From Candidatus Oxydemutatoraceae bacterium (lineage in GTDB: Bacteria; Pseudomonadota; Gammaproteobacteria; Poriferisulfidales; Oxydemutatoraceae): a DNA stretch of 64,000 nucleotides. The DNA lies in NCBI GenBank assembly GCA_965237985.1, contig OZ250161.1:104078-168077 (forward strand), given 5' to 3'. Under the pieces are notes generated by a model. It had not been told where the DNA came from and did no database searches. It saw only the letters and a list, made by a program, of their open reading frames with translations. The translations under genes were made by a program, and so were the position numbers. Shown here piece after piece: positions 14,571 through 60,756 of this stretch (positions within the stretch are counted from its first letter, which is position 1; every line of letters begins with the position of its first letter).

Positions 14571-16568
14571 CTTTGAAAACAGGAGCATGAAGCCATGAGG
14601 CCTCCTGCACGTTTGTTGCTTGAAGACGGCACTGTTTTTTGTGGTTGCCAAGTGGGTGGGGACCAACGAGGGGATGGCGGTCGGCGAAGTGGTGTTCAAC
14701 ACGGCGATGACTGGTTACCGGGGGATATTGACCGCTCGTCTTGCCGACAGCAGATTATTACCTTGACCTGCCCGCATGTCGGCAACGTCGGGACAAACGG
14801 TGAAGATTCTGAATCGTCCAATTGAAAACAGGAGCATGAAGCCATGAGGCCTCCTGCACGTTTGTTGCTTGAAGACGGCACTGTCTTTTGTGGTCGCCAG
14901 GTGGGGACCGACGAGGGGATGCGGTCGGCGAAGTGGTGTTCAACATGGCGATGACTGGTTACCAGGAGATATTGACCGATCCGTCTTACCGACAGCAGAT
15001 TATTACCTTGACCTGCCCGCATGTCGGCAACGTCGGGACAAACGGTGAAGATTCTGAATCGTCCAATTGAAAACAGGAGCATGAAGCCATGAGGCCTCCT
15101 GCACGTTTGTTGCTTGAAGACGGCACTGTCTTTTGTGGTCGCCAAGTGGGGACCGACGAGGGGATGGCGGTCGGCGAAGTGGTGTTCAACACGGCGATGA
15201 CTGGTTACCGGGGGATATTGACCGATCCGTCTTGCCGACAGCAGATTATTACCTTGACCTGCCCGTATGTCGGAAACGTCGGGACAAACGGTGAAGATTC
15301 TGAATCGTCCAATTGAAAACAGGAGCATGAAGCCATGAGGCCTCCTGCACGTTTGTTGCTTGAAGACGGCACTGTCTTTTGTGGTCGCCAAGTGGGGACC
15401 GACGAGGGGATGCGGTCGGCAAGTGGTGTTCAACACGGCGATGACTGGTTACCGGGGGATATTGACCGATCCGTCTTACCGGCAGCAGATTATTACCTTG
15501 ACCTGCCCGCATGTCGGCAACGTCGGGACAAACGGTGAAGATTCTGAATCGTCCAATTGAAAACAGGAGCATGAAGCCATGAGGCCTCCTGCACGTTTGT
15601 TGCTTGAAGACGGCACTGTCTTTTGTGATCGCCAAGTGGGTGGGGACCAACGAGGGGACGGCGGTCGGCGAAGTGGTGTTCAACACGGCGATGACTGGTT
15701 ACCGGGGGATATTGACCGATCCGTCTTGCCGACAGCAGATTATTACCTTGACCTGCCCGTATGTCGGCAACGTCGGGACAAACGGTGAAGATTCTGAATC
15801 GTCCAATTGAAAACAGGAGCATGAAGCCATGAGGCCTCCTGCACGTTTGTTGCTTGAAGACGGCACTGTCTTTTGTGGTCGCCAAGTGGGGACCGACGAG
15901 GGGATGGCGGTCGGCGAAGTGGTGTTCAACATGGCGATGACTGGTTACCGGGGGATATTGACCGATCCGTCTTACCGGCAGCAGATTATTACCTTGACCT
16001 GCCCGCATGTCGGCAACGTCGGGACAAACGGTGAAGATTCTGAATCGTCCAATTGAAAACAGGAGCATGAAGCCATGAGGCCTCCTGCACGTTTGTTGCT
16101 TGAAGACGGCACTGTCTTTTGTGGTCGCCAGGTGGGGACCGACGAGGGGATGCGGTCGGCGAAGTGGTGTTCAACATGGCGATGACTGGTTACCAGGAGA
16201 TATTGACCGATCCGTCTTACCGACAGCAGATTATTACCTTGACCTGCCCGCATGTCGGCAACGTCGGGACAAACGGTGAAGATTCTGAATCGTCCAACTG
16301 AAAACAGGAGCATGAAGCCATGAGGCCTCCTGCACGTTTGTTGCTTGAAGACGGCACTGTTTTTTGTGGTTGCCAAGTGGGTGGGGACCAACGAGGGGAT
16401 GGCGGTCGGCGAAGTGGTGTTCAACACGGCGATGACTGGTTACCGGGGGATATTGACCGCTCGTCTTGCCGACAGCAGATTATTACCTTGACCTGCCCGC
16501 ATGTCGGCAACGTCGGGACAAACGGTGAAGATTCTGAATCGTCCAATTGAAAACAGGAGCATGAAGCC
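14571..16568 (+). repeat. Tandem array of eight partial copies of the carA 5' end (about 246 bp each; 5'-UTR with SD plus first 74 codons), head-to-tail directly upstream of intact carA
   Basis: ATGs at 14595, 14844, 15089, 15335, 15579, 15829, 16079 and 16320 each follow GAAAACAGGAGCATGAAGCC. Each copy ends ...GAAGATTCTGAATCGTCCAATTGA. The ninth ATG at 16569 is the intact gene. Confidence 0.9.
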
Positions 16569-17702
16569 ATGAGGCCTCCTGCACGTTTGTTGCTTGAAGA
16601 CGGCACTGTCTTTTGTGGTCGCCAAGTGGGGGCCGAGGGGATGGCGGTCGGCGAAGTGGTGTTCAACACGGCGATGACTGGTTACCAGGAGATATTGACC
16701 GATCCGTCTTACCGACAGCAGATTATTACCTTGACCTGCCCGCATGTCGGCAACGTTGGGACAAACGGTGAAGATTCTGAATCATCCACAGTATTTGCTT
16801 CTGGTCTGGTGTTGCGGGATGTTCCGCTCATGGAACAGAACTGGCGTAGCGAATGTTCTCTTCCTGACTTTTTGAAACTGCGGGGAGTGGTCGCGATTTG
16901 TGATGTGGATACCCGGCGCCTGACGCGACATTTACGTGATCAGGGTGCGAAAAACGGGGTTTTGTACAGCACAGACTATAGCGATGAAGAAGCAAAGAAA
17001 GCTCTGTTGGCATTTCGTGGACTGTCCGGCACTGATCTGGCAGCGGAAGTCAGCACCTCCCACGCCTACGACTGGGATGAAAGTGTGTGGTGCCCTGGAG
17101 GCGGGTTTGCCACCAGGAACGACGGTGATTTCTACGTGGTGGCATATGATTTTGGAATCAAGCGGACGATTTTGAGAATCCTGACCAGCCTGAATTGCAA
17201 AGTGCGTGTTGTGCCGGCTAAAACCCCGGTGGGTGAGGTTTTGTCCTTGCGACCTGATGGTGTGTTTTTGTCCAATGGCCCGGGAGATCCGGAGCCATGT
17301 TTTTACGCGATCGAGTCAGTGCGTAAGATCCTGGATGCAGGCATCCCTTTGTTCGGGATATGTTTGGGGCATCAGCTGCTGTCTTTGGCGTGTGGTGCGC
17401 GCACTGTGAAGATGAAATTTGGCCATCATGGTGCCAACCATCCGGTTGAAGAACTGGCGACCGGAAAAGTCTTGATTACTTCCCAGAACCACGGTTTTTG
17501 TGTTGACGAGAGTTTTTTGCCTTCCTGTTTGTCCGCGACCCACCGCTCCCTTTTTGACCAGAGCCTGCAGGGGGTTCATCACACCGGGAAACCGGCCTTC
17601 GGGTTCCAGGGACACCCCGAAGCCAGCCCCGGCCCGCACGATCTGGTACCGTTTTTCTCCCACTTCATGGATTTGATGAAAGATTGTGCCAAAAAGAACT
17701 GA
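16569..17702 (+). CDS. carA: Carbamoyl-phosphate synthase small subunit CarA
   Basis: N-terminus [21 protein letters not shown]...[20 protein letters not shown]. GATase triad region GICLGHQ. It overlaps the carB start. Confidence 0.9.
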
Positions 17703-21758: not shown

Positions 21759-23630
21759 TCACGATTTCCCCTTTGGTGATTCTACTTCTTTCCCTTCGCA
21801 AAAGTGCACGAATCCTTTAACGTTGCCCACGACCCACTCAAACTCTTCCTTCGTAAGTTCTTGGCCGTCTTGACTGAATTTTTTCCTGTATACAGGTTCA
21901 CTGGCTTTTTTGTGCATTAGAGTGAGAAGGTTTTTACCTTCTCGGTTGTACATGGGTATTCCCGTTTTCCGGTTTACAGGCAATTGTTTGATGACCCTGT
22001 CGACACAATGCATTAGTTTTGCACTGGGTACGCGCCTGCAGCAGCTTTCGGCAACATCTGGGATGCCCAATATGCCGGTTTCTTTAAAATCAGTCGACCA
22101 CTTTGCATTTGTTGATGATTTCTCCATGTGCTCCAGATCAAACAGTGTGTCTCTGTTTGGTGCACGTCCATTTTTCAGTGTGAGGTAGCTAAGACAGTGC
22201 TTTGTATTTGCACTCACTTTCGTGCCCTCAATATACCCTGCCAATCTATACCCTTCCAATCTTTCGCCAATTCTTTTTTCCAAGGTGGCTGTCAGTTGCG
22301 CATGTAAGCGATTCTGTCCTGATGAAGAGATTCCGGGCGCAAAAGCGAGCGGTTCCTCTGCTGTCCTGATATCAAAAAATTCTGTGACATGATAAGCCTG
22401 CATTTTATGAGTTGCCCAGTAATCTCTACGTTGAATCCATGTTTCGTTATCAGAAATTGTCCGTGTCTTCCCGGACACCGCAACAAGTGTTTTCGTTATT
22501 TCTATTTTGGGGCGTTCTGCCCCTACACTTTTCCCTATTATTGCTGCGTCGGTTTTGCCGGCATCGGGCTTCGTTGCGCTCGTGTCTGGTGTATTTTTTC
22601 CAGTTATAGGCCGATTTCTGCCGCTTCCGGGATCTTTTGCCACTTTGATACGACTACTCTCATCTTGTGGCGTAGGCCCACTTTTGGTGGTACTGGATTT
22701 ACTGGATTGTGGTGTTCCTGCTCTGCTCGTGTTCGGCGTTTCTTTTTTTTTGTTCCTTGTAGGCTGACTGTTGCCTTTTTTCGCAGGGGGCTTCAGATTT
22801 TGTTTCGGGTTTTTTGTTAGGGCATTGCTGGCTGCCGTTCCTCGTGTTAAGTCCCTCCGGGTTACTCGTTTTTTTTCTGTCACCGGCTGACTGTTGCCGG
22901 GATCTTGTGTCGTACCTGTGAGGTGACTTTGCTCTTGTGTTGCAACCGTAGATGTCAGGTTGGTGTGTTCCTCAGTGGGTTTTTTGTCTGTCACCGGCTG
23001 ACTGTTGCCGGGATCTTGTGTCGTACCTGTGAGGTGACTTTGCTCTTGTGTTGCAACCGTAGATGTCAGGTTGGTGTGTTCCTCAGTGGGTTTTTTGTCT
23101 GTCACCGGCTGACTGTTGCCGGGATCTTGTGTCGTACCTGTGAGGTGACTTTGCTCTTGTGTTGCAGCCGTAGATGTCAGCTTGGTGTGTTCCTCAGTGG
23201 ATTCTTTGTCTGTTGCCGGGTCTTGAAAGGTGCTGGGCGTGATGGCTTCAGTGTTAGTTTTGGGAAGTTCAGTGCCCGGGGTGTTCTGGTTGCCTCCCGT
23301 ATCGGGTGTGGCTCTGCTGCTGGCAAGTCTTTGCGATTCCTCATGGATGTAACGGTTAAACTCCCTCCTGTTCTGCAAGGTTTTTTCTTGTTCTGTGGAG
23401 ATCTTGAATTCCTCATTTTCACTACCAAGAGCTGCAGCCAGTATATTCCTGCGGCTCTGCAGCTCTTGCTTGCGATAATTTTCACTGAACTTGTAGCGAA
23501 AAATATGCACTACCCAGCCTGAGAATGAGTTCTTGAGAACACATTGCCCGTTACCATTGTCTGTTTGTACCCCCAGTCTGCCCAGCTGACTTCTGGCAGC
23601 TCTCTGCAAGATTCCATCACCAATTTCCAT
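21759..23630 (-). CDS. Hypothetical protein, 623 aa, with central Thr/Gln/Ser-rich low-complexity region (3 x 37-aa repeats) and a conserved-looking C-terminal domain
   Basis: Long open frame. Repeat TDKKPTEEHTNLTSTVATQEQSHLTGTTQDPGNSQPV x3. No recognisable family. Confidence 0.55.
   Translation of the reverse strand: MEIGDGILQRAARSQLGRLGVQTDNGNGQCVLKNSFSGWVVHIFRYKFSENYRKQELQSRRNILAAALGSENEEFKISTEQEKTLQNRREFNRYIHEESQRLASSRATPDTGGNQNTPGTELPKTNTEAITPSTFQDPATDKESTEEHTKLTSTAATQEQSHLTGTTQDPGNSQPVTDKKPTEEHTNLTSTVATQEQSHLTGTTQDPGNSQPVTDKKPTEEHTNLTSTVATQEQSHLTGTTQDPGNSQPVTEKKRVTRRDLTRGTAASNALTKNPKQNLKPPAKKGNSQPTRNKKKETPNTSRAGTPQSSKSSTTKSGPTPQDESSRIKVAKDPGSGRNRPITGKNTPDTSATKPDAGKTDAAIIGKSVGAERPKIEITKTLVAVSGKTRTISDNETWIQRRDYWATHKMQAYHVTEFFDIRTAEEPLAFAPGISSSGQNRLHAQLTATLEKRIGERLEGYRLAGYIEGTKVSANTKHCLSYLTLKNGRAPNRDTLFDLEHMEKSSTNAKWSTDFKETGILGIPDVAESCCRRVPSAKLMHCVDRVIKQLPVNRKTGIPMYNREGKNLLTLMHKKASEPVYRKKFSQDGQELTKEEFEWVVGNVKGFVHFCEGKEVESPKGKS
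22880..23215. repeat. 111-bp tandem repeat x3 inside the 21759..23630 ORF
   Basis: Direct read of the sequence. Period is about 110-111 bp. Confidence 0.8.
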
Positions 23631-24367: not shown

Positions 24368-24541
24368 TGGGGTTTCAACGGCCCCGGCATCATTTCTTGA
24401 CCCCTCACTGCCTTTGTGCTCTGGTGATGGTTTTGTGTTTCCTCAGTCAATGGGAGAATAGACGGAAACAAAGTGCGACCACACGTTCACTTGTAAATGC
24501 AACATCCAGCAGGTAGCACTGGCATTCGGACATCGGCAGAT

Positions 24542-25234
24542 GGGGCTGATTTGTGGCTACGGTCAGTGGTTTCCGTCCTGTTTCAGTCGTCCGGATTTTT
24601 TAGTTTTTTTGCAGTGCGTAAATGGTTGCGAGTGCCTGGCGAGGAGACAGTTCGTTTGGGTCCAGTTTTTTCAGAGCTTTCAATGCCGGGTGGTGGTGGT
24701 CAAATGCGAGTTTCGGTTGCTGCGGGGAGGGTTTTTGGACACACTGCATGGCTTCCAGCTCCTCCAGCTTCTGGGGCTGATTTGTGGCTACGGTCAGTGG
24801 TTTCCGTCCTGTTTCAGTCGTCCGGATTTTTTAGTTTTTTTGCAGTGCGTAAATGGTTGCGAGTGCCTGGCGAGGAGACAGTTCGTTTGGGTCCAGTTTT
24901 TTCAGAGCTTTCAATGCCGGGTGGTGGTGGTCAAATGCGAGTTTCGGTTGCTGCGGGGAGGGTTTTTGGACACACTGCATGGCTTCCAGCTCCTCCAGCT
25001 TCTGGGGCTGATCTGTGGCTACGGTCAGTGGTTTCCGTCCTGTTTCAGTCGTCCGGATTTTTTAGTTTTTTTTGCAGTGCGTAAATGGTTGCGAGTGCCT
25101 GGCGAGGAGACAGTTCGTTTGGGTCCAGTTTTTTCAGAGCTTTCAATGCCGGGTGGTGGTGGTCAAATGCGAGTTTCGGTTGCTGCGGGGAGGGTTTTTG
25201 TTTTTGGGCACACTGCATGGCTTCCAGCTCCTCC
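24542..25234. repeat. 231-bp unit x3 comprising the last ~63 codons of mutS plus ~42 bp of 3' flank; two extra copies lie downstream of the mutS stop
   Basis: Units start at 24542, 24773 and 25004. The third overlaps the genuine mutS 3' end (stop 25045). Confidence 0.85.
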
Positions 25235-27630
25235 AGCTTCGCAAGCGCCTGTTTCAGGGTGGCTTCCGGAAGACCTGCCAGGCGGGCGACCTGGATGCCG
25301 TGGCTGCGGCTGGTGCCTCCGACTTTTACTTTGTGCAAAAACACGACTTCTCCGGCGTGCTCTATTGCGTCCATGTGGACATTTTGCACTTGTGGGTATT
25401 TTTCGCAGAGCGTTGTCAATTCGAAATAGTGTGTGGCAAACAATGTCAGTGAGTGGTTCCGGCTTGCCAGTTCTGCCGCACATGCCCAGGCCAGGCTGAG
25501 TCCGTCGAAGGTACTTGTTCCCCTTCCGATTTCATCCATCAGTACCAGGCTGTCCGGCCCGGCGTTATTCAAAATGTTGGCTGATTCCGTCATTTCCACC
25601 ATGAATGTAGAACGTCCCGAGGCGATGTCATCTGCCGCGCCAATCCTCGTGTAAATGCAATCCAGGGGGCCGATGGTGGCTTCTGTAGCAGGCACCCAGG
25701 CGCCGATATGTGCCAGTAAGGCAATTTGAGCTGTTTGGCGCATGTAGGTGGATTTTCCGCCCATATTCGGTCCGGTGATTACCAGCATGCGTTGTTTCTC
25801 ATCCAGATCGAGGTCGTTTTCCACGAAAATGTTTTCCTGGCTGAGTTCTACGACGGGATGTCGTCCGCCCTTGATGTGTATCCCCCGGGAGGCAGCCAGT
25901 GTCGGTCGGCAGTACTTTCGTTCTTCTGCGCATTTGGCAAGGGTGGTAATGACATCTGTCGCAGCCAGAGCGGCTGATGTTGCCTGCAGGCGACTGATGA
26001 AGGGGCGGAAATAAAGCAGGATTTCCCGGAACAGTTTTTTCTCTTTGGCAAGTGCTTGATCGCGGGCGGCAAGTACACGGCCTTCCAGAGATTTCAATTC
26101 GGCAATGGAGTAACGTTCTGAGTGTTTTAGCGTTTGCATTCTTCGGTAGTCCTCCGGAGCTTTCTCAGCAACTGCGCGTGGCATCTCTATGTAATAGCCG
26201 TGCACCCGGTTGTAAGCGACGCGCAAATTATTGACTCCTGTCCTGCGCCGTTCCCGATTTTCAATTTCTATCAAATGTCCGGAAACGTTTTTATGCAGTC
26301 CGCGAAAATAGTCCAATTCCGGGTCGTATTTGGAGCGAATGACTCCGCCATCACGTATGGTGGCAGGGGGAGTGTCCACAATTGCCTGTGCAAGATGTTG
26401 TGCGAGTTCCGGTTCGGGGTGCAGGTTGGCATCAAGATTTTTGGCCAGCGGGCTTGTCAGAGTGCCCAGCGTAGTTTTCAAAACCGGCACCAGCTCCAGA
26501 GTTTCCCGAATGCCGTTCAGATCTCGGGGTTTTGCTGTTTCCAGAACCACGCGTGCCAGCATGCGTTCCAGGTCATTACTGCGTCCCAGTATGGCGCGTA
26601 GATTGTGCAGGGTTTCCTTATGTACCAGTTCGCCGATCAGTTCCTGGCGTTTTTGCAGGGCTTCGCGTTGCCGTAAGGGACTGGCAAACCAGCGCCGCAA
26701 ACAGCGCGCTCCCATGCTGGTAACGGTGTGATCGTGAATGCCAACGAGCGTTCGCTTGTGATCGCCTGAAGTCGATTTTTCTATTTCCAGGCAACGGCGA
26801 CTTGTGGCGCTGAGCTGCACAAAATCTTCATCGTTTTCCACGATGAGGCTACGCAAATGTGGCAACTCTGATTTCCTGGTGTCCAGCACGTATTGCAAAA
26901 GCGCCCCGGCAGCTGCAACAGCCGTGTCTTTGTTTATGCAACCGAATCCTTCCAGACCCAGCACCTCAAGCTGCCGGCATAATAGCCTGCGTGCATTTCT
27001 TATCAGAAAAACTGATGCCGGCAAGCTTTGCGGCTGGTGCTTTTCCAAAGTGAAAGTGCGGTTTTCACTGACCAGAAGTTCAGCCGGATGCAGGCGGTCT
27101 ATTTCATCATCCAGTGCGGCGTGGCTGGCAGTCTGGCGGATAGTCAAACGACCGGAACTGAGTTCAAGCGTGGCGATGCCGAATACCGGCTGTTTTGTTT
27201 TTTCATCGCTATGTACGGCCATGACCAGATTGTCTCGTTGCTCATCCAGCAGTGTGTCTTCAACGACGGTTCCCGGAGTGACCACGCGCACCACTTTGCG
27301 CTCCACAGGCCCGCGGCCTTGTACCGGGTCGCCGACCTGGTCGCAGATTGCCACAGTCTTTCCCAGGCGAACCAGTTTGGCGAGATAGCTTTCCACCGCA
27401 TGTACTGGCACACCAGCCATGGGCACTTTCTTATTGCCGTAACGGCCGCGGGAAGTCAAAGTAATATCAAGGAGCTTTGCTGCTTTTTCGGCATCGTGAA
27501 AAAACAGTTCATAAAAATCCCCCATATGATAGAAAAGCAGGGTGTCCGGGTATTCAGACTTTATGCGCAGGTACTGCTGCATCACGGGGGTGTGTTCGCT
27601 GATCATGAGTGTGCTGCTCTCCAGGGGCAT
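25045..27630 (-). CDS. mutS: DNA mismatch repair protein MutS
   Basis: 861 aa. N-terminus [28 protein letters not shown]. Walker [10 protein letters not shown]. Confidence 0.95.
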
Positions 27631-28182: not shown

Positions 28183-28264
28183 TATTTGGCAGTTCAGCTA
28201 AAAAAGTTCAGTGCAAGAGGTCCCCGAAGAGACTATCGCCTGCAATCCAGTACCGTTTTTTCAT

Positions 28265-29250: not shown

Positions 29251-29290
29251 ATTTCATGGCGGTAATCCTTCACATGCATCGCCACAGGAA

Positions 29291-47159: not shown

Positions 47160-47314
47160 GCTGTGAGAAAAACAGCTGTGGCAAGCTGTCCCGGGTATGG
47201 GGCTGATGGCCCATGTTTCAATCAAAGCCGATAAAGGCTGTTTTTCGGATTGCCGGAGCATGGTGGAGCGTTCCTTGGCCGTGTTATGCATCCATGAGTT
47301 GAAAACTGGAGGTA
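47160..47314 (+). promoter_or_regulatory. Core of the conserved leader shared by all five paralogs (GAGAAAAACAGCTGTG(G/A)CAAGCTGTCC...GGAGGTAATGATGGCG) with SD GGAGG
   Basis: Near-identical copies end at 47314, 51100, 56095, 57129 and 61213. Paralog D retains only this ~155-bp core. Confidence 0.4.
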
Positions 47315-49944: not shown

Positions 49945-50528
49945 TATGAGAATTTCCTCTGGCGAATTCATTCTCACCATGATGAACTCTAAAGTGCTTC
50001 TTATAACCAAAATCTACTAAACCATTATACCCACGCCAGCCATCAGAATGAATAACACTATCTATACTTGTTTTACCTCTAATTATCTTGGTTAAAGTCG
50101 CTGCAGTGCAATCCGGAACAATCTCAGTATAAACTTTATCACCGCGTTTTAATAAACCAAATACTTTGGTTTTACCTTTGGCGCCACGACCACGCACACC
50201 TTTGACTCTTTTTGCCCCAAAGTAAGATTCATCAACTTCAATCTGTCCCACTACAATCTGTCCCACTACAATCTGTCCCACTAATAGGGCAGATTAGTTG
50301 GTTGAATCTCTGGCAACCTGCTTGCGAATTGCCTTTAAATATTGATTAATAGTTTGTCTACTTAACTTTGTTAATTATTGGATTTGAACGGCGTTCAAAT
50401 CCAAAGAAAAATAGCGAATAATTTCTCTAAATTTATGCTCAGGAATTCTTGAACGAATTACATATTTGTTTTTCATTGTCATAACAATACTTATCATGTT
50501 TTTAAACATGCTTAACTTGTCATGACCC
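49945..50528. mobile_element. 5'-truncated second copy of the IS1016-like element (missing ~185 bp of one end) carrying an internal 15-bp x3 repeat
   Basis: Colinear and near-identical to 3048-3604, ending in the same terminal repeat (GCTTAACTTGTCATGACCC). CAATCTGTCCCACTA is present three times at 50239-50283 versus once in copy 1. Confidence 0.75.
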
Positions 50529-51100
50529 CCGGTTAAATATGCAGGGAATGGTTGCGTTCCGGTTATTCTGCCACATCTTCCGGCTCAGGTTCAGGTACTG
50601 GTAGGGTAGGGTGCCGGTAAGGGTGCAGTGGCAACCAGTTTTTCCGTCCAGATTACGTGTCATTAGAAAACGACCGAATGCTCGCACACGATCGATCGGG
50701 GGGGCATGACGAAGTTCCAGCAGGAAATGCCTGAGCTAAAAAGCAAGCATCTCAAATGGGATAAAACTGGCATGCTCAGGTTGCTCAGCACCGACAGAAA
50801 ATTTGACACAGAGATTCTGTAGGTTTAGAATACAGGGACTGGCTGGGTTCGCGGCGGTGGTTCGTGGGCATTAGTCGGTGTTGTTGTATAGCAGCGGAGG
50901 GACTGCTGGCGTGCGAATTATTGAACGATGCGGGTGCGAGAAGTGGCTGTGAGAAAAACAGCTGTGACAAGCTGTCCCGGGTATGGGGCTGATGGCCCAT
51001 GTTTCAATCAAAGCCGATAAAGGCTGTTTTTCGGATTGCCGGAGCATGGTGGAGCGTTCCTTGGCCGTGTTATGCATCCATGAGTTGAAAACTGGAGGTA

Positions 51101-54100
51101 ATGATGGCGAGTAAAATTGGTGGTCTGTTTGGGAAGTATTCGGGCACGTATGCCACAAGTGGTCGGGGTGGTGTGGGGCGCGAGGTGCTGGATGCCAAGG
51201 GGCAACGAAAAACGTCACGATACGAGTTGCGTGGTTTTGATGATAATGTTCCCCGAATCAGCAAGCGTGGCGGCAATTTTCTTGACCGTGTCGTATGTTG
51301 GCTTGAAGACCGTGTTTTTTCGCTTACGAGAAGTGGGAAATCTCCCTCGCTACGGCAAAAATCCAGCTATCAATTTGCTTATGATGTTGGTGAAGCACTT
51401 CTGGAAATAGACCCGAATCTGGGTGCTGAGGGTGGAAATGTCGACACACATGAGCTGGTGCGACGAATAGAATCTGTTCGGGTGCGGGATTTGTCACTTC
51501 GGTCAGGCTTTGTTCGCGATATTCTTCAGGAGGTTGCGACCTTGGCGCGGGAAGCAGATCATGGAGACACGCTGCCAGAGTTGGCCAGAAACGCTTTTCC
51601 CGTACAGAATCCTGTACGGGATGAAGACCCAGAGCAACCGGCTGCCGACCCGGAAGCGGGTGCCCCAGGCAATAATCACGAAGACGAAGAGGCGTTCCAG
51701 CAGGTTCTACCTCCTCCAGATGCACCCGTGGGTAGGGAAAATCGGCAGGAAGGTGGTGAAGATGTAGCCCCCCCTGATAGACCAGTTGAGCTTAATCAAG
51801 AAGTGGCGCCTCAGCTTGTTGCTAGACCAGCTGAGGCGCTATTTAACTTTACGGGTCTGAGTGAAGAAGAATTGTTCGACAAACTCCGCGACCCGGTGAG
51901 GTCTAAAATGGTTAAACCATTGCTGGATCAGCGGAATTTTTGGAAGGATGGGGACTATGAAGAGAAAAACAAGGCAGCTGATGCTATGGTCCATTTGGTG
52001 TCTGCCAAACTTGTTGGGGGTTTTGGTGGTTGTGAAAACGTACAAAAAGTTATGAATAATCACCTGGGTACTTTGAGGAATTTTGATATTCCAGAGGACC
52101 AGCGGACTGATGGGCAACTGCAAACAGAGGCACTGAATATCACAGTTCAGACATTCTCAGAAAATGAGGACGCTCTTGAGAGTACGTATCGGATCGTCGT
52201 AGAGGGAATTGGTAATTATACAGGTAGAAAAGAAGGCGTTTTTCTTGGCGCGGAAAATGTCGAGCAGCAGCCTATTGTTCACCCGGAAATGGGTGTCCCA
52301 GGCAATGGTCGCGGAGACGAAGAGCTGCCCCACCCGGTTCTACCTCCTCCCAATGTATTCGCCGCGCGGGGGGGATATCGGCAGCAGGAAGGTGGTGCAT
52401 ATGTTGCAGTCCAGCGTGATGGACCAGTTGCGCCTCATCAAGAAATGCAGATTCAGCCTGCTGCTGATCCAGTTGAGGAGAAATTTAGCTTTACGAATCT
52501 GAATGATGAACAATTGTTCGACAAACTCAACGACCCGGTGAAGTCTAAAATAGTTAACCCATTGCTGGAAGATCGGGATTTTTGGGAGGGTGGGTACAAT
52601 GAAGAGAAAGGCAAAGTAGTTGATGAGATTGTCCGTTCGGTGTCTGCCCGGCTTGTTGCTGTTTTGGGAAATCATGAACAGGTGAAACTTGATGCGAATG
52701 ACAAACTGGAAGTTTTGACGTTTTATGATGATAAAACTGATAAGCTGACTGATATGCAACTGCAAAGAGGGGCACTGGGTGTCGTAGTTCAAGAACACAT
52801 GGAAAAGGATGCAGAGCAGACGAAGCGGATCGTCATGGCGGGAATTAACCGTTATTTGGGTCAAGGCGTTCCTCTTGGCGTGGAAAATGTCGAGCAGCCG
52901 CCTTTTGCTGGTCCAGTTGAGGCGCCATTTAGCTTTGCGGATCTGGATGATGGACAATTGTTCGACAAATTACGCGCCCCGGTGATGTCTAAAATAGTTA
53001 ACCCATTGCTGGCCGAACAGGGTTTTTTGAAGGGTAGGTACAGTGACGAGGAACAAAAGGTAGTTGATAGGATTGTCCGTCTTGTGTCTATCCGGCTTGT
53101 TACTTCTTTTGGAAATTATAATGAGGTACGAGATGCTGCGAATAAAAACCTGGATACTTTGAGAGAACAAGACCAGGTGGGGCAGACTGATGCGCAACTG
53201 CAAACCTGGGCGCTGGAGCTCGTGGCTGTAGAATACGACGAAGAAAAGGCTGCAGGTCAAGCGATGCAGGTCGTCACACAGGAAATTAGTCGTCATGGCG
53301 CTCATGGGAGGGAGAAAGTGGATATGCACCCCGGCCCCAAGTCTACTGCACCTCCTGAAGATGTGGCGCAGGTTCAGCTTGCTGCTGATTCAGTTAGGGG
53401 GGTATTTAGCTTTATGGGTCTGGAAAATGAAGAATTTTATAGCAGACTCAGCGAACCGGTGAAGTCTAAAATAGTTGCCCCAGAGCTGAGAGAGCAGGAT
53501 TTTTTGCAGGATGGGGCAGATGAGAAGACAGTGGATATCGTTAGGTGGATTTCTAGGACGGTGGCTGGTGAGATTGTTGCCACTTCTGGAGGTATTGGAG
53601 AGGTAAAACAGGCTGCGAATGAAGCACTGGAATTATATAGAGTTGCTGTTGATGAAAATAACCCGCTGTCTGATGAGCAACTGCAATCCAGGGTGCTGGA
53701 GAACGTAGTTGAACAATACCAAGGAAAAGGGGCTGATGTAGTAGGCAGGTTGAAGGAGACCGTCGCGACGGAACTTGTCTATCATTTGAACAAAGCAAAG
53801 AAACCAAGCGCGCCAGTTGAAGAGCAGAAAGAGGTGGCGGCTGATCGGCCGGCAAAACCACAATACGCTATGCCAGGCGTGCAAGCTGAAGGAGTTCATG
53901 CTGCCCAACAAAGAGCTCTTGATGAGCAATTACCTTTTCAACAAATGTCTTCCGAAGGGTTTTTGAAAAGGCTCAGTGAGCAGGTAGAAGCCGAATATGT
54001 GCTTCCTGTACTTGGTGCTATGGAGAGGCAGGATGGTCCGGAAAAGGACAAGATGAAAGAAATAATGACGGTGAACGCAACTGTCTGGTTTGTCGCGAGT

Positions 54101-54532
54101 ATTAAGGGAGGTAAGACTGATATAATCAAGCAGGGAGCACAGGAAAGCTACAATGTAAAAGCCACTTTCTATGGACCTGAAGTTCAGGGGGGCGAGATTC
54201 AAAACGAAGTACTGAAGAATTTGTGTGTTGATGGTTTGACGGGTAGGGAGAAAGAAAAGCTGTATAAGATAGCTGGAGATAACACTTTGATTCAAGCTGG
54301 TCTGGGGAGGGATGATGATGTGTATATTGGAAAGGTCATTTTGGATAGAATAGCGGGCTATTTGGAAGTGGAAGCCCGGCGCCTCCCCGCCCACGGATCA
54401 GCTGTGGAGCACCAGCATGGTAACAACATTATCGACCCTAACAAAGAGGCTGTTGCTGGTTCTCAATCTATCGTGCCTGAGCCTGATGATTTTAGCCAGC
54501 CGGTTGGACCCACCCGTTCCGGTAGGTCGTAA
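51101..54532 (+). CDS. Paralog B, the only apparently intact member (1143 aa): conserved N-domain, four to five ~150-aa modules, distinct C-terminal domain
   Basis: Uninterrupted ORF. Modules begin FNFTGLSEEELFDKLRDPVRSKMVKPLL, FSFTNLNDEQLFDKLNDPVKSKIVNPLL, FSFADLDDGQLFDKLRAPVMSKIVNPLL and FSFMGLENEEFYSRLSEPVKSKIVAPEL. Confidence 0.7.
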   Translation: MMASKIGGLFGKYSGTYATSGRGGVGREVLDAKGQRKTSRYELRGFDDNVPRISKRGGNFLDRVVCWLEDRVFSLTRSGKSPSLRQKSSYQFAYDVGEALLEIDPNLGAEGGNVDTHELVRRIESVRVRDLSLRSGFVRDILQEVATLAREADHGDTLPELARNAFPVQNPVRDEDPEQPAADPEAGAPGNNHEDEEAFQQVLPPPDAPVGRENRQEGGEDVAPPDRPVELNQEVAPQLVARPAEALFNFTGLSEEELFDKLRDPVRSKMVKPLLDQRNFWKDGDYEEKNKAADAMVHLVSAKLVGGFGGCENVQKVMNNHLGTLRNFDIPEDQRTDGQLQTEALNITVQTFSENEDALESTYRIVVEGIGNYTGRKEGVFLGAENVEQQPIVHPEMGVPGNGRGDEELPHPVLPPPNVFAARGGYRQQEGGAYVAVQRDGPVAPHQEMQIQPAADPVEEKFSFTNLNDEQLFDKLNDPVKSKIVNPLLEDRDFWEGGYNEEKGKVVDEIVRSVSARLVAVLGNHEQVKLDANDKLEVLTFYDDKTDKLTDMQLQRGALGVVVQEHMEKDAEQTKRIVMAGINRYLGQGVPLGVENVEQPPFAGPVEAPFSFADLDDGQLFDKLRAPVMSKIVNPLLAEQGFLKGRYSDEEQKVVDRIVRLVSIRLVTSFGNYNEVRDAANKNLDTLREQDQVGQTDAQLQTWALELVAVEYDEEKAAGQAMQVVTQEISRHGAHGREKVDMHPGPKSTAPPEDVAQVQLAADSVRGVFSFMGLENEEFYSRLSEPVKSKIVAPELREQDFLQDGADEKTVDIVRWISRTVAGEIVATSGGIGEVKQAANEALELYRVAVDENNPLSDEQLQSRVLENVVEQYQGKGADVVGRLKETVATELVYHLNKAKKPSAPVEEQKEVAADRPAKPQYAMPGVQAEGVHAAQQRALDEQLPFQQMSSEGFLKRLSEQVEAEYVLPVLGAMERQDGPEKDKMKEIMTVNATVWFVASIKGGKTDIIKQGAQESYNVKATFYGPEVQGGEIQNEVLKNLCVDGLTGREKEKLYKIAGDNTLIQAGLGRDDDVYIGKVILDRIAGYLEVEARRLPAHGSAVEHQHGNNIIDPNKEAVAGSQSIVPEPDDFSQPVGPTRSGRS

Positions 54533-55279
54533 CGTTCATGAGACCGTGCCGGTGCCGCGGAAAATGTTCCTGTTTTCGAGTCAGGACAACATGGAGGAGT
54601 TATTACTGACCAACAGAAGGACCAATGATCGGAGATTTTATGACTGATTTGGGTGGGGGATCCGTCAGAGAATGCCTTCGTGCTGTTGCCATTGAAAAGG
54701 GCGTGGTGGCAGGCTACGCAAACGTAGCTCTGGATATTGATACCCCGGGGTATTAAAGTGAAAGCTACGTTTGATGGGCTCTGCGTCTCAAGAATGCCGG
54801 GTGCAGAATCTCGTTACGTTGATGTTGGAACACATCGCATTGATGTTGGAGACCATTACATTGGTGTTTGACACTTGCACTTAGCAGAGCGATTCATACC
54901 CACAACGATCTTGCAGATGCGAGAAGCCCTGTTGACTGGGGCGGTGCAGCAGAGCGAGAACAAGTCACCGGACGAGCTGTTGAGAGCTTTGGTGTTGAAT
55001 TTTGCACGAGTCTTAAGAGCGGCAGCTTAAGCCATGGTAAATGGGTTTGGCTGACGTTGTCTTGATTTCAAGCTCAGGATCGGCGGCCAGCTTGTCAGTC
55101 AGGTAAGCGTCTGTTGACGGGTTTGAGCATTGTTCCTGCGATAAAATTCGTAAAAACCTCCAGGAATGGTGTGGTCGAACGGTGATTTTAGCCAGCTGTC
55201 GGTTTGCGGTGTATTTATCGGACCACCATCAGAAAATCTGGCGTCAGGCACCCGATGAAACTTTTTCACCCAACACCGG

Positions 55280-55489
55280 TTACTCCGTGTGGAGTATCGT
55301 TCCCCGATTGCTTTCTCCCCGTTCAGACTCTGAACATTGTTTCCGCGGCCTTAGTGTTGGTGTGCGGTGTGCCGACACGATTTTCTTCTCGTAGGGAATG
55401 GCGAAGCTGTCCAGGCGTTCAGCGGCGTGTCTCATGACTGGCCAGTCATTTTTGCTACCCATGAGGAGTCCGACGACTGGTTCTTTCAT
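55280..55489 (-). pseudogene. Duplicated 5' fragment of purE (first 46 codons, then divergence)
   Basis: [46 protein letters not shown] is identical to PurE. Part of a segmental duplication that carries the paralog leader. Confidence 0.7.
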
Positions 55490-56095
55490 GATTTTTCCAG
55501 GTTCCGGTTAAATATGCAGGGAATGGTTGCGTTCCGGTTATTCTGCCACATCTTCCGGCTCAGGTTCAGGTACTGGTAGGGCAGGGTGCCGGTAAGGGTG
55601 CAGTGGCAACCAGTTTTTCCGTCCAGATTACGTGTCATTAGAAAACGACCGGATGCTCGCACACGATCGATCGGGGGGGCATGACGAAGTTCCAGCAGGA
55701 AATGCCTGAGCTAAAAAGCAAGCATCTCAAATGGGATAAAACCGGCATGATCAGGTTGCTCAGCACCGACAGAAAATTTGACACAGAGATTCTGTTGGTT
55801 TAGAATACAGGGACTGGCTGGGTTCGCGTGCGGTGGTTCAGTGGACATTCGTCGGTGTTGTTGTATAGCAGCGGAGGGGCTGTCGGCGTGCGAATCATTG
55901 AACGATGCGGGTGCGAGAAGTGGCTGTGAGTGGTCATTCACTCTTGGGTGCTGCTGTGAGAAAAACAGCTGTGGCAAGCTGTCCCGGGTATGGGGCTGAT
56001 GGCCCATGTTTCAATCAAAGCCGATAAAGGCTGTTTTTCGGATTGCCGGAGCATGGTGGAGCGCATATGCATCCATGAGTTGAAAACTGGAGGTA

Positions 56096-56659
56096 ATGAT
56101 GGCGAATGAAATTAGTGGTCTGTTTGGGAAGTATGAGAGCACGTATACCACAGTTCAGAGTGGGGGAGCTCGCGAGGAGATGGATGCCAAGGGGCAACGA
56201 AAGACGTCACGATACGAGTTGCGTGGTTTTGATGCTGATGGTCTCCGAATCAGCAAGCGTGGCGGCAATTTTCTTGACCGTGTCGTATGTTGGTTTGAAG
56301 ACCGTGTTTTTTCGCTTACGAGAGTGGATGCGACTATCTCTATACGGCAACAATCCAGCAAACAATTTGCTGAAGATGTTTCCGCAGCACTTATAGCAAT
56401 GGACCCGAAACTGAAAGTTGTAGACCCGAATCCGGAAGCTGTGGGCCATAATCTGAAAGAGGGGGAAATAGATCTCAGCAAACATGATTTGATGCAACAA
56501 ATAGAATCTGTTCGGGTGCGGGATTTGCCACTTCGGTCAGGCTTTGTTCTCGGTATTCTTCAGGAGGTTGCGAACTTGGCGCGGATGAATGAAGGTAGTG
56601 TAGGCAATCTGCCAGATTTGGCCAAAAAGGCTTTTCCCGACAATCGAGCCAACCCCTAA
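56096..56659 (+). CDS. Paralog C, truncated (187 aa), followed by out-of-frame module fragments up to about 57000
   Basis: Same conserved N-terminus, then stop. ORF 56748..57140 continues with an FSFTNLNDEQLYGRL module in another frame. Confidence 0.5.
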   Translation: MMANEISGLFGKYESTYTTVQSGGAREEMDAKGQRKTSRYELRGFDADGLRISKRGGNFLDRVVCWFEDRVFSLTRVDATISIRQQSSKQFAEDVSAALIAMDPKLKVVDPNPEAVGHNLKEGEIDLSKHDLMQQIESVRVRDLPLRSGFVLGILQEVANLARMNEGSVGNLPDLAKKAFPDNRANP

Positions 56660-57129
56660 CCGGCTGTCCACCCGGCTCTACCTTTTTCCAATGCATTCGG
56701 GGGTAGGGGAAATCGACAGGAAGGTGGTGAGGATGTAGCCCGCCCTGATGGATCAGCTGAGCCTCATCAAGGAGTGCAGATTCAGCCTGTTGCTGGATCC
56801 AGTTGAGGAGCAATTTAGCTTTACGAATCTGAATGATGAACAATTGTACGGCAGACTCCGCGGCCCGGTGAGGTCTGAAATAGTTAACCCATGTCTGAAC
56901 GAGCAGAATTTTTGGAAGGATGGGGAAGATGAAGGGAAAATGCGGTTCGTTGATGAGATTGTCCATGAGGTGGCTGTGAGAAAAACAGCTGTGGCAAGCT
57001 GTCCCGGGTATGGTCTGATGATCAATGTTTCAATCAAAGCCGACAGATGCTGTTGTTCTGGTTGCCGGAGTATGGTGGAGCGTTCCTTGGCCGCATTATG
57101 CATCCATGAGTTGAAAACTGGAGGCAATT

Positions 57130-58368
57130 ATGGCGAATGATATTGGCGGTCTGTTTAAAAAGTATTCGGGTACGTATTCCACGGCTCAGGGTTCCACGGC
57201 TCAGGGTGATGTGGGTCGCGAGGTGCTGGATGCCAAGGGGCAACGAAAGACGTCTCGGCACGAGTTGCGTGGTTTTGATGCTGGTGTTCCCCGAATCAGC
57301 AAGCGTGGCGGTAATTTTCTTGACCGTGTCGTATGTTGGCTTGAAGACCGTGTTTTTTCGCTTACGAGAAGTGGGAGCCGTCTCTCGCCACGGCAAAAAT
57401 CCAGCAATCAATTTGCTGCTGATGTTGCTGAAGCACTTCGAGAAATAGACCCGGATCTGGTTGCTGAGGGTGGAGGTGGCGAGAAACATGATCTGGTGCG
57501 ACGAATAGAATCTGTTCAGGTGCGGGATTTGCCACTTCGGTCAGGCTTTGTTCGCGGTATTCTTCAGGAGGTTGCGACCTTGGCGCGGAGAGCAGAGCAT
57601 GGAGACAAGCTGCCAGATTTGGCCAAAAACGCTTTTCCCGTACAGGATGGAAGGCTAGGGCAACCGGCTGTCCACCCGGAAGTGGGTGCCCAAGACAATC
57701 GCGAAGCCGAAGAGGTGATCCACCAGAATCTACCTTTGCCCCATGCACTCGGGGGTAGGGGAAATCGGCAGGAAGGTGGTGAAGATGTAGCCCGCCCTGA
57801 TGGATCAGCTGAGCCTCATCAAGGAGTGCAGATTCAGCCTGTTGCTGATCAAGTTGAGGAGCCATTTAGCTTTGCGGATCTGAATGATGAACAACTTTTG
57901 GGCAGACTCAGAGAACCGGTGAAGTCTAAAATGATTATCCCAGTGCTGCGCGAACGGGGTTTATGGGCGGCGGGGGCAGGTGATGAGCAAGAGCGGGAGC
58001 AGATAGCTGATAGGATTGTCGATGATGTGGCTAACGCGGTTGTTGCTGCTGGTAAAGGTGGTCTTGAACAGCTAAAACTTGATGCGGATGGTTCACTGGG
58101 TTTATTGAGAACTGTTGCTTCTTCTGGCCGTGAGGTCGTGGTGACTGATAGGCAACTGCAAAACAGGGCATTGAAAGCCGTAGTTGAACAACACATAGGA
58201 AGACTTTCTGCAGTCCGGTCGGTGGAGATCGTCACGGAGATAATTGACCGTCATCTTAGAGGGCGACCAGACGGTCTTAGCATGGAAAATCACGGGCAAG
58301 AGGTAGTGGATGATGAGTGGCTGGCAGTGCCAGGCGAGCAAGCTAAAGCAGTTCATACTGCCCAATAA
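57130..58368 (+). CDS. Paralog D (412 aa); its C-terminal region is cut by an IS481-family insertion at 58558
   Basis: Conserved N-terminus (MANDIGGLFKKYSGTY...) and two modules. After the stop, in-frame remnants of the family C-terminal domain (MTVNATVCFVVNIK) run into the IS end. Confidence 0.6.
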   Translation: MANDIGGLFKKYSGTYSTAQGSTAQGDVGREVLDAKGQRKTSRHELRGFDAGVPRISKRGGNFLDRVVCWLEDRVFSLTRSGSRLSPRQKSSNQFAADVAEALREIDPDLVAEGGGGEKHDLVRRIESVQVRDLPLRSGFVRGILQEVATLARRAEHGDKLPDLAKNAFPVQDGRLGQPAVHPEVGAQDNREAEEVIHQNLPLPHALGGRGNRQEGGEDVARPDGSAEPHQGVQIQPVADQVEEPFSFADLNDEQLLGRLREPVKSKMIIPVLRERGLWAAGAGDEQEREQIADRIVDDVANAVVAAGKGGLEQLKLDADGSLGLLRTVASSGREVVVTDRQLQNRALKAVVEQHIGRLSAVRSVEIVTEIIDRHLRGRPDGLSMENHGQEVVDDEWLAVPGEQAKAVHTAQ

Positions 58369-58557
58369 AGACAGAATGATGAGTAATTATCTTTTCAAGA
58401 AATGTCTTCCGAAGGGTTTTTGAAAAGGCTCAGTGAGCAGGTAGAAGCCCAATATGTTCTTCCTCATGCTAAGGGGGTTCAGAATGGTCCGGAAAGGGAA
58501 CGGATGAAAAAAATAATGACGGTGAACGCAACTGTCTGTTTTGTCGTGAATATAAAG

Positions 58558-60756
58558 TGTAGAAGTTTAGACCCAATCTGACACATCACTCAATCAAGCT
58601 GAGCGCAGCGAAGCTTGATTGAGTGAGAGTTACCCGTTTAGATGTAATTGCAATATTAACATCCAAACAAAGAGGTAACTCTCATGATCCATACTAACGA
58701 TAAAGTCATTAAATATAAAGTCGGCCTACTCAATCTGGCTGAAGAACTCGGAAACGTCTCAAAAGCCTGCAAGATGATGGGCGTATCCAGAGATACTTTC
58801 TATCGATACAAAGCCGCTGCTGATGAAGGTGGCATTGAAGCACTTTTTGATCAAAACAGGCGTATCGCGAACCTCAAAAATAGAGTTGATCCTGCGATTG
58901 AATCCATCGTCGTTGAACACGCTCTGGAAGAACCTGCCCATGGGCAGACCCGAACCAGCAATGAGCTACGCAAAATGGGGACATATTATTTCGCCGACGG
59001 GCGTACGAAGTATTTGGTTACGCCATAACCTGGCTTGCTTTAAATGTAGAAGTTTAGACCCAATCTGACACATCACTCAATCAAGCTGAGCGCAGCGAAG
59101 CTTGATTGAGTGAGAGTTACCCGTTTAGATGTAATTGCAATATTAACATCCAAACAAAGAGGTAACTCTCATGATCCATACTAACGATAAAGTCATTAAA
59201 TATAAAGTCGGCCTACTCAATCTGGCTGAAGAACTCGGAAACGTCTCAAAAGCCTGCAAGATGATGGGCGTATCCAGAGATACTTTCTATCGATACAAAG
59301 CCGCTGCTGATGAAGGTGGCATTGAAGCACTTTTTGATCAAAACAGGCGTATCGTGAACCTCAAAAATAGAGTTGATCCTGCGATTGAATCCATCGTCGT
59401 TGAACACGCTCTGGAAGAACCTGCCCATGGGCAGACCCGAACCAGCAATGAGCTACGCAAAATGGGGACATATTATTTCGCCGACGGGCGTACGAAGTAT
59501 TTGGTTACGCCATAACCTGGCTTGCTTTAAATGTAGAAGTTTAGACCCAATCTGACACATCACTCAATCAAGCTGAGCGCAGCGAAGCTTGATTGAGTGA
59601 GAGTTACCCGTTTAGATGTAATTGCAATATTAACATCCAAACAAAGAGGTAACTCTCATGATCCATACTAACGATAAAGTCATTAAATATAAAGTCGGCC
59701 TACTCAATCTGGCTGAAGAACTCGGAAACGTCTCAAAAGCCTGCAAGATGATGGGCGTATCCAGAGATACTTTCTATCGATACAAAGCCGCTGCTGATGA
59801 AGGTGGCATTGAAGCACTTTTTGATCAAAACAGGCGTATCGTGAACCTCAAAAATAGAGTTGATCCTGCGATTGAATCCATCGTCGTTGAACACGCTCTG
59901 GAAGAACCTGCCCATGGGCAGACCCGAACCAGCAATGAGCTACGCAAAATGGGGACATATTATTTCGCCGACGGGCGTACGAAGTATTTGGTTACGCCAT
60001 AACCTGGCTTGCCTTAAAGATCGACTCAAAGCACTATCCGATAAAGTGGCCACTGAAGGCCTGATTCTTACTGAACCTCAAGTCGCTGCCATGGAACGCA
60101 AACAAGATGACGATCAGGCCTGTGGTGAGATAGAAACAGCCCACCCTGGCTATTTGGGCTCGCAAGACACTTACTATGTGGGTATATTCAAGGATATTGA
60201 CCGAGTCTATCAGCAGACGTTTGTTGATACTTACAGTAAAGTCGCTCACGCCAAGCTCTACACCACCAAAACGCCGATTACCGCCGCTGATATGCTCAAT
60301 GATCGTGTGTTGCCGTTCTATGAGGAACAAGCACTTCCCATGCTGCGGATTCTCACCGACCGTGGTACAGAATATTGTGGTCGAGCTGACCAACATGATT
60401 ACCAGCTCTACCTGGCTTTGAATGATATTGAGCACACCAAAACCAAAGTCAGGTCACCGCAAACCAATGGCATTTGTGAACGCTTCCACAAGACCCTTCT
60501 CAATGAGTTTTACCAAGTGACCTTGCGTAAGAAAATCTATCAATCGATAGAAGAATTACAAATTGATCTTGACAAATGGCTCATCAAATACAATACTCAA
60601 CGAACTCACCAAGGCAAAATGTGCTGTGGGAGAACGCCGATGGAAACTCTCATCGACGGCAAATCAATCTGGAAGGAAAAGTCTTTGAACTAAACTTAAC
60701 CTGACAGTCGGTTGCTGATAAACGGGTAACTGTCAGATCAAGTCTGAATTTCTACA
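58558..60756 (+). mobile_element. IS481-family insertion sequence whose left end (terminal repeat, leader and first 114 codons) is tandemly triplicated (3 x 487 bp)
   Basis: Terminal repeats TGTAGAAGTTTAGACCCAATCTGACA at 58558 and TGTCAGATCAAGTCTGAATTTCTACA ending at 60756. Unit starts at 58558, 59045 and 59532. rve-type DDE ORF at 59860..60693. Confidence 0.8.
59658..60693 (+). pseudogene. IS481-family transposase (HTH plus rve DDE domain) with a +1 frameshift near 59960 relative to the inverted copy
   Basis: ORF A ends ...ELRKMGTYYFADGRTKYLVTP-stop while ORF B continues HIISPTGVRSIWLRHNL. The copy at 63.3 kb reads ELRKMGTFVSPTGVRSIW in one frame. The difference is GACATATTATTTCGCC versus GACATTTGTTTCGCC. 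Confidence 0.7.

Follow-up and report, generated by a model that had tools for sequence, protein, structure and literature searches.

Tandem copies of gene ends in a gammaproteobacterial lineage: abundance, placement and fate

Why do partial gene copies stand in tandem against the starts and stops of intact genes in a stretch of gammaproteobacterial DNA? The stretch in question, here called the window, comprises 64,000 nucleotides of Candidatus Oxydemutatoraceae bacterium (positions 104,078 to 168,077 of contig OZ250161.1, which is 2,000,500 bp long) and carries such arrays at the 5' ends of carA, rpe, thiD and the transposase gene of an IS481-like insertion sequence (IS), at the 3' end of mutS, and over the convergent 3' ends of folP and thiE. 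The original prediction saw in them a propensity to amplify gene ends, and this propensity proved to be real and lineage-wide, relatives of the source organism carrying other gene-end arrays. The explanation favoured here, and considered probable, is that the lineage forms or expands short tandem duplications (~100-600 bp, sometimes kilobases) unusually often, or fails to purge them.

Array abundance in the window and in related genomes

The window was searched with Tandem Repeats Finder and by self-BLAST, and gene names were assigned by Pfam (folP, thiE, thiD, rpe and the rve-type transposase, and likewise the surrounding housekeeping genes). All six loci listed in the original prediction were recovered where it had placed them, and its description of the units as direct repeats abutting an intact parental gene was borne out, as follows:

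14573-16788, forward strand: carA 5' array, 246-bp unit in 9.0 copies, 95% matches
14573-16547, forward strand: eight extra carA 5' copies of 244-250 bp each, decaying pseudo-fragments
16548-17702, forward strand: intact carA with its own leader (ATG at 16569), the ninth unit; product 100% identical to P0001
24541-25240, reverse strand: mutS 3' array, 231-bp unit in 3.0 copies, 98% matches
24541-25002, reverse strand: two extra mutS 3' copies, downstream of the mutS stop
25003-27630, reverse strand: intact mutS (gene 25045-27630) with its native 3' flank, the third unit; in synteny with L081, L085 and L086
32054-32152 and 32204-32304: convergent 3' ends of folP and thiE, repeated at an offset of 150 bp with 88% identity over 100 bp; the duplication spans 32054-32353
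33652-33943, reverse strand: thiD 5' array, 146-bp unit in 2.0 copies, 98% matches; extra copy at 33798-33943
39849-40529, reverse strand: intact rpe, assigned by Pfam; product 100% identical to P0125
40309-42975, reverse strand: rpe 5' array, 239-bp unit in 10.9 copies, 88% matches
40530-42996, reverse strand: ten extra rpe 5' copies of 236-258 bp each, the outermost the most diverged
58553-60756, forward strand: IS481-like element, its left 487 bp triplicated
58553-60018, forward strand: IS481-like 5' array, 487-bp unit in 3.0 copies, 99% matches; extra units at 58553-59527

Arrays with a period of at least 90 bp occupy 12.0% of the window, versus 0.04% of a control (2 arrays in 1.35 Mb) that consisted of the carA loci of 80 other genomes, mostly gammaproteobacterial, subjected to the same detection. 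Arrays of the same type and period occupy 22.9% of 84 kb in relatives. The density is ~300-fold higher than in ordinary genomes, and the abundance of arrays is far above chance. Scans for Rfam families and for tRNA genes returned nothing tied to the arrays.

The loci of relatives, labelled L081 to L088, come from long-read metagenome assemblies, and literature searches found no description of this clade. An earlier scan of genome contigs with CarA gave, among the matches listed, identities of 64% at most. They stand in the following relation to the window and to each other:

L081 and L087: circular genome of 1.92 Mb, nucleotide identity to the window ~82-83%
L082 and L088: circular genome of 3.0 Mb, ~90% identical to L081
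L083 and L084: two contigs obtained from the sample that yielded L082; identity between L082 and L083 98.8%
L085: 1.34-Mb contig, its CarA 69% identical to that of the window
L086: circular 1.85-Mb contig, its CarA 66% identical to that of the window

At the loci orthologous to those of the window, these relatives are clean. No carA array is present in any relative locus (L081, L082, L083, L085, L086), no rpe array in L084, L087 or L088, and neither a thiD nor a folP/thiE array in L087, the only relative that covers those loci. The mutS 3' array is absent from L085 and L086, which cover that position; the sample of closer relatives excludes the mutS 3' end. Thus, the arrays of the window arose after the species split. 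The relatives have arrays elsewhere:

L084 10741-12348: trpE 5' array, 152-bp unit in 10.8 copies, with ATGA junctions
L084 and L088: trpC 3' array, 280-bp unit, in 5.0 copies in L084 and 3.0 in L088
L082 (7448-9374) and L083 (6810-9371): M23 peptidase 3' array, 639-bp unit, in three copies in one and four in the other
L085 8545-9525: M23 peptidase 3' array, 323-bp unit in three copies
L082 (4042-4587) and L083: tolB/ybgF junction array, 134-bp unit, in 4.0 copies in one and 5.4 in the other
Relatives, further arrays: 196-bp unit in 6.9 copies, 105-bp unit in 3.1 copies, 142-bp unit in 1.9 copies
L082: a whole-gene unit of 1960 bp
Relatives, in-frame arrays within open reading frames (ORFs): 39, 96 and 567 bp

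The 134-bp and 639-bp arrays vary in copy number between L082 and L083, two sequences from one sample that are 98.8% identical. The array propensity is a trait of the clade, acting at different loci in each genome, with copy number shifting among co-occurring strains. The original prediction had suggested looking for the same arrays in close relatives; arrays were found there at gene ends in general but not at the particular genes, carA, rpe, thiD and folP/thiE all being free of them. In L086, no arrays were found in the sampled locus. The 3' part of the M23 peptidase gene adjacent to carA has been amplified independently in two lineages (as 639-bp and 323-bp units), and the M23 gene of the window (13396-14307) is single.

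Array load differs among the relatives: arrays make up ~30% of 42 kb from the 3.0-Mb genome and ~5% of 42 kb from the 1.92-Mb genome, at two loci per genome. The 3.00-Mb genome (L082 and L088) and the 1.92-Mb genome (L081 and L087) are 1.08 Mb apart in size at ~90% nucleotide identity, and, judged from these two loci per genome, arrays may account for much of the size gap of ~1 Mb.

Structure, fate and placement of the extra copies

Each carA unit consists of a 22-nt leader with an AGGAG ribosome-binding site, an ATG and ~74 codons, and the copies terminate at an in-frame TGA within the 22-nt leader of the next unit. The extra carA copies are 91-100% identical to one another, and all eight contain a 3-bp insertion that is found neither in the real carA nor in the ortholog of the relative; the pseudo-copies therefore descend from a single founder copy that was later amplified. 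The extra rpe copies are more diverse (75-97% identical) and carry shared variant blocks in mosaic combinations, with the blocks r4-r5-r6 and r7-r9-r10 related in direct order, which is the signature of unequal exchange and gene conversion within the array. Every rpe unit carries an ATG, and in copies that remain in frame the TGA stop overlaps the next ATG as ATGA; no clear Shine-Dalgarno sequence was seen in the rpe units, and in the inner units the 18 nt preceding the ATG differ from the native upstream sequence. Both thiD copies hold 101 nt of upstream sequence, the ATG and 15 codons.

The original prediction had every 5' copy retaining a Shine-Dalgarno sequence, an ATG and a stop at the next start. 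This is accurate as regards the ATG of carA and rpe units and the AGGAG of carA; it goes too far for the Shine-Dalgarno sequence of rpe and for the reading frame, which is kept to the junction in just 2 of the 8 extra carA copies and 4 of the 10 extra rpe copies. Three 5' arrays have a unit length that leaves a remainder of 2 on division by three, namely those at 40530-42996 in the window (239 bp), 10741-12348 in L084 (152 bp) and 4042-4587 in L082 (134 bp). With such a unit and a gene that starts with ATGA, the stop of an in-frame mini-ORF overlaps the next start by 4 nt, which is the classic geometry of translational coupling.

Two candidate expansions of rpe elsewhere were discarded. The metagenomic Rpe ORFs P0126-P0128 (316-335 aa, on contigs of 1.5-2.2 kb) were rejected as independent rpe arrays, being unrelated sequences with internal duplications, probably chimeras produced by short-read assembly. 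The length of the L087 Rpe (313 aa) was likewise attributed to a miscalled start and not to a duplication.

At the 3' ends, each extra mutS copy consists of the last ~63 codons and ~42 nt past the stop. The mutS gene and its two 3' copies differ by 6 bp in frame (25160-25200), the gene reading GTTTTTGTTTTTGGG and the copies GGTTTTTGG. The duplication at folP (stop at 32096) and thiE (stop at 32193) has two copies of ~150 bp and covers both 3' ends, with both genes intact, and is older; in L087 folP and thiE overlap by 4 nt, without a duplication. The IS481-like unit comprises the left inverted repeat and the 5' part of the transposase gene. The terminal inverted repeats of the element are 26 nt long (59532-59557 and 60731-60756), every unit junction falls exactly at the left inverted repeat, and all three 5' copies carry a frameshift in the transposase gene near 59945, at an AAAA/GGGG run.

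Substitution patterns separate the gene-joined copies from the rest. Counted by codon position, the real carA differs from its L081 ortholog by 4/4/28 substitutions and the real rpe from its ortholog by 9/1/14, in both cases with no indels. Summed over the extra copies, the differences from the real gene are 14/29/33 for carA and 51/40/57 for rpe, with 1-5 indel events per copy in each array. The gene-joined copy is under purifying selection, whereas nothing keeps the extra copies coding and they decay neutrally. One of three explanations put forward originally, that N-terminal peptides are produced deliberately, is not supported, as the extra copies are frameshifted and have substitutions at all codon positions. 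Another of the three, adaptive amplification of promoters, fares no better: no sense-strand sigma-70-like promoter site was found in the carA or rpe units, and the TATAAT element upstream of carA, which is conserved between the window and a relative, lies ~180 bp outside the array, so that promoter amplification is unsupported.

The remaining explanation was slippage or recombination anchored at start and stop regions. In a simulation, units with the observed lengths were dropped at random positions along an approximate gene map of the window; 66% of placements fell inside one gene, 25% spanned a gene end and 9% were wholly intergenic, and under this model the location of all six arrays at gene ends has P ~2.4e-4. 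When gene-internal placements were removed, 72.5% of the rest spanned a gene end, and six of six then has P ~0.15. Whenever one breakpoint lies outside the gene, the duplication restores one intact copy; no anchoring mechanism is required, and the gene-end bias comes mostly from survivorship. Thus, slippage or recombination is favoured among the three explanations, and the anchoring is needless, as the filter alone gives ~72%.

Arrays inside genes agree with this filter. In addition to the loci listed in the original prediction for this finding, the window has two arrays within ORFs:

8533-8806, forward strand: in-frame 45-bp (15-aa) repeat in six copies, within a TolA-like ORF (8116-9132)
22868-23213, reverse strand: in-frame 111-bp (37-aa) repeat in 3.1 copies, within an ORF with no assigned function (21759-23630)

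Relatives have 39-bp arrays at the position of the TolA-like ORF and 96-bp in-frame arrays in orthologs of ORF 21759-23630. The period of every gene-internal array is divisible by three (39, 45, 96, 111 and 567 bp), and all these arrays lie in repetitive or function-unassigned proteins; such periods in tolerant proteins are what the survivorship filter predicts.

The similar lengths of several units had been taken as a sign of a mechanism that measures length. The periods found in the clade are 39, 45, 72, 96, 105, 111, 134, 142, 146, 150, 152, 196, 231, 239, 246, 280, 323, 487, 567, 639 and 1960 bp. This spread from 39 to 1960 bp without a gap speaks against any length ruler, and that three units of the window measure 231-246 bp is no evidence of one.

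The position of the breakpoints outside the genes is less easily explained. The part of the unit outside the gene, relative to the whole unit, is as follows (in nt), thiD and the IS being exceptions:

carA 5': 22 of 246
rpe 5': ~0-3 of 239
trpE 5' (L084): 7 of 152
mutS 3': 42 of 231
trpC 3' (L084): ~53 of 299
M23 3' (L082): 33 of 639
M23 3' (L085): ~10 of 325
thiD 5': 101 of 146
IS 5': 131 of 487

The arrays with the highest copy numbers (carA, rpe and trpE, ~9-11 copies) have the shortest outside parts, of 22, ~0-3 and 7 nt. Such short outside parts may reflect selection for units that are little more than a translated mini-ORF, terminating and re-initiating at each junction, and that so avoid long untranslated gaps, and hence polarity on an essential downstream gene, or they may reflect a mutational bias towards gene boundaries.

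Weighing of explanations

A sequence of four steps is proposed. The first duplication would arise through illegitimate recombination or a template switch, at sites that share little or no microhomology. The unit patterns show the next step: unequal exchange, slippage and gene conversion between units have amplified the founder pseudo-copy and reshuffled the array into multi-unit blocks and mosaics. The simulation and the sequence show the third, in which selection purges duplications that are wholly internal to a gene, those in frame in a tolerant protein excepted; the survivors have one breakpoint outside the gene, so that the array abuts the start or stop codon and one gene copy, and only one, is left intact. 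In the last step, shown by the substitution patterns above, the extra copies, no longer kept as coding sequence, decay neutrally. Trains of start-stop mini-ORFs appear because the start region has been duplicated, and units that keep termination and re-initiation at their junctions are probably those that reach high copy number without starving the downstream gene.

Several points weigh against this account. Duplication followed by a filter supplies no cause for the high rate. The survivorship filter alone also leaves the closeness of breakpoints to start and stop codons unaccounted for: the mean outside fraction is ~0.17 versus 0.5 under a uniform model, in a rough test made post hoc. Microhomology was seen at the junctions of only the IS (TAAA) and the L084 trpE array (TTC), and most young junctions (thiD, mutS) have none, so that the primary event was not classic slippage between short direct repeats. 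At the IS481-like element, the junction exactly at the left inverted repeat means that the transposase may have made the array. Finally, the sampled DNA amounts to 64 kb of the window genome and ~170 kb from six relatives' contigs, and the window was chosen for its odd appearance.

The misfit of the breakpoints is the strength of a rival in which the mutational process itself is tied to gene boundaries. Here, breaks would form preferentially at translation or transcription start and stop regions, for instance where replication forks stall at R-loops or at complexes on promoters, ribosome-binding sites or terminators, and would be followed by template switching; the gene-end location would be mechanistic and not only a matter of survivorship. 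Outside parts far shorter than the uniform model predicts, and shortest in the three arrays of highest copy number, are in its favour. The sample is small, however, and the test was picked after the data had been seen; the thiD and IS units misfit; units that span two gene ends occur (folP/thiE, tolB/ybgF, FecCD/ABC); no common motif is visible at the carA, rpe, mutS, thiD and IS junctions; and selection for continuous translation of the leader could yield the same pattern. This process is judged unlikely.

A bolder form of it would have hyperactive duplication, with breakpoints set by start and stop complexes, build translated mini-ORF trains on the housekeeping genes of an uncultured clade of small-genome Gammaproteobacteria, enlarge genomes by as much as ~1 Mb (1.9 versus 3.0 Mb at ~90% identity) and perhaps be linked to the loss or relocation of recA. 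As a whole, this is a decidedly unlikely proposition. With regard to recA, cinA is followed by recA and recX in L085 (17745-19999) and L086 (17677-19931), and in the window (27679-29291) cinA is followed by an RNase_T-family exonuclease gene and lepA, not by recA and recX. Among the best 120 RecA matches, in a list that ends at ~77% identity, there is no RecA from the array-rich genomes of the clade. L085 has both recA and arrays. RecA relatives loosely suggest a place near Ectothiorhodospiraceae and Thioalkalivibrio.

That the arrays are adaptive, tuning downstream expression through copy-variable trains of translated leaders, through extra promoters or ribosome-binding sites, or through functional N-terminal peptides, would fit the coupling geometry that is kept at several loci (the ATGA stop/start overlap of rpe, trpE in L084 and ybgF in L082, and the in-frame TGA followed by AGGAG in carA) and the variation of copy number between strains; such coupling is also thought to be why start codons tolerate MIRU repeats (PMC12548453). 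The lack of sense-strand promoter-like sites in the carA and rpe units, the frameshifts and neutral substitution pattern of the extra copies and the absence of arrays from orthologous loci of relatives all argue otherwise. Moreover, arrays at 3' ends (mutS, trpC, M23) cannot affect translation initiation, and the IS pseudogene behaves like the rest. Adaptation of this kind is thus very improbable.

Expansion or invention of the repeats by a long-read metagenome assembler also has to be considered, since the source is a metagenome-assembled circular contig, the arrays are known here from assembly alone, and a 31-mer across the carA junction had no match in JGI metagenomes. The copies differ by substitutions and indels shared in blocks, however, and the gene-joined copy is always intact and ortholog-like; an assembler cannot know which copy matters, so that this regularity argues against an artefact. 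The phenomenon is seen again in three further ENA assembly records, which between them provide six such contigs, and arrays of 0.3-2.7 kb are well under the length of long reads. There is very little likelihood that the arrays are artefactual.

A dedicated mobile or enzymatic system, based on a transposase, a reverse transcriptase or a site-specific recombinase, is just as hard to credit as the builder of these arrays. The IS481-like junction is where a transposase event within the element would be expected to leave it, and suggests that this one array may be of transposase-mediated origin; an element end at the junction was seen in the IS array only. Two tyrosine integrases are encoded at 3624-6424, but they belong to a tRNA-adjacent island ~8 kb or more from the gene-end arrays, the units are gene-specific, and no motif or terminal repeat is common to the loci. 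A scan of 30 ORFs turned up no reverse transcriptase, and the copies differ from one another mostly by transitions of every kind and by indels, in agreement with the original exclusion of a diversity-generating retroelement. Its exclusion of an integron likewise stands, as the units are fragments of the adjacent gene and the integrases are of phage type with an arm-binding domain (no model search for attC sites was made). A CRISPR array is excluded by units of 146-487 bp that lie head to tail without spacers.

The island just mentioned (1-6424) is a probable integrated element adjoining tRNA-Ser (1094-1185). It has a G+C content of 46-47%, versus ~53% elsewhere, and encodes a Fic-domain protein (1778-2851) and the two tyrosine integrases (3624-5525 and 5522-6424), the first with a NikA/HicB-like C-terminal part. 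At the other end of the window, 46500-63200 contains lineage-specific paralogous ORFs without a Pfam match (47315-49180, 51101-54532, 57130-58368 and 61214-62236). These share 5' regions and internal repeats, and 300-nt segments are repeated at distances of up to 14 kb: those at 46575 and 55353 are identical, and those at 46858 and 60757 are 98% identical.

Implications and comparison with known systems

The clade offers a natural system with many independent, datable events, in which the formation, expansion, recombination and decay of tandem duplications, and selection on where they survive, could be measured. The arrays also call for practical caution: dozens of the N-terminal mini-proteins that gene callers predict in such genomes will be spurious, and assemblies from short reads will be interrupted at the array loci.

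In the duplication-amplification process described by Roth and Andersson, tandem duplications formed by illegitimate recombination are enlarged by unequal recombination; they extend over kilobases to hundreds of kilobases, contain whole genes, are selected for dosage and are otherwise quickly lost. Here, by comparison, the amplified sequences are gene fragments, with no dosage benefit, that have persisted to 3-25% divergence. Units of 146-487 bp hold 15-119 codons and none of them a complete dosage-selected gene, the exception in the clade being the 1960-bp unit of L082. Closer in form are the tandem duplication-random loss events and control-region repeats of organelles, in which partial duplicates beside a parental gene decay while one copy stays intact. 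Those usually have one or two copies, whereas arrays of 10 copies are found here, and in a bacterium.

Among bacterial repeats, MIRU units stand in tandem at start codons and contain an internal ORF coupled to the downstream gene by a 4-nt ATGA overlap, which is thought to minimise the effect on expression (PMC12548453). MIRU is, however, a single dispersed family of 40-100 bp at many loci, whereas here the unit differs from locus to locus and in each case comes from the neighbouring gene; the arrays are not connected by any repeat family, and the view that they are not amplified REP or MITE elements holds, for MIRU as well. The VNTR-141 and VNTR-105 loci of Wolbachia are intergenic repeats with periods of 100-140 bp and copy numbers that vary between close strains, attributed to slipped-strand mispairing and concerted evolution (PMC3287509). 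Unlike the arrays described here, they are few, purely intergenic and composed of hairpin-bearing units, with no gene fragments.

The nearest counterpart is Ehrlichia ruminantium. Its 201 tandem repeats, whose periods average 139 bp and range up to 471 bp, cover 6.3% of its genome, a content called in 2012 the highest reported for bacteria (PMC3287509), and these repeats actively expand and contract (PMC10710844). The present clade resembles it in having many long-period repeats that cover several percent of a small genome and change in copy number between strains, the latter tested here in relatives. Most pseudogenes of E. ruminantium are reportedly truncated gene fragments associated with repeats, according to Collins in 2005. 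All three features were looked for and found in this clade: repeat density, strain-level variation of copy number (in relatives only) and truncated gene fragments at repeats, those of carA, rpe, thiD, mutS, folP/thiE and the transposase gene. E. ruminantium, an alphaproteobacterium, is obligately intracellular and AT-rich and has long non-coding regions, whereas the clade described here is gammaproteobacterial, has ~52% G+C and has kept its biosynthetic genes, so that a high repeat load is present in a GC-balanced genome; and its arrays lie directly on the ends of housekeeping genes. Against the 6.3% of E. ruminantium, which is a genome-wide figure, stand 12% of the window and ~30% of 42 kb in the 3.0-Mb relative, which are samples and not whole genomes; if the sampled densities hold genome-wide, the clade would exceed E. 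ruminantium in tandem-repeat content. The original prediction knew of no described class of elements with this behaviour, but E. ruminantium is a published precedent (PMC3287509, PMC10710844), and the present case is a new and extreme instance of a kind already described in that species.

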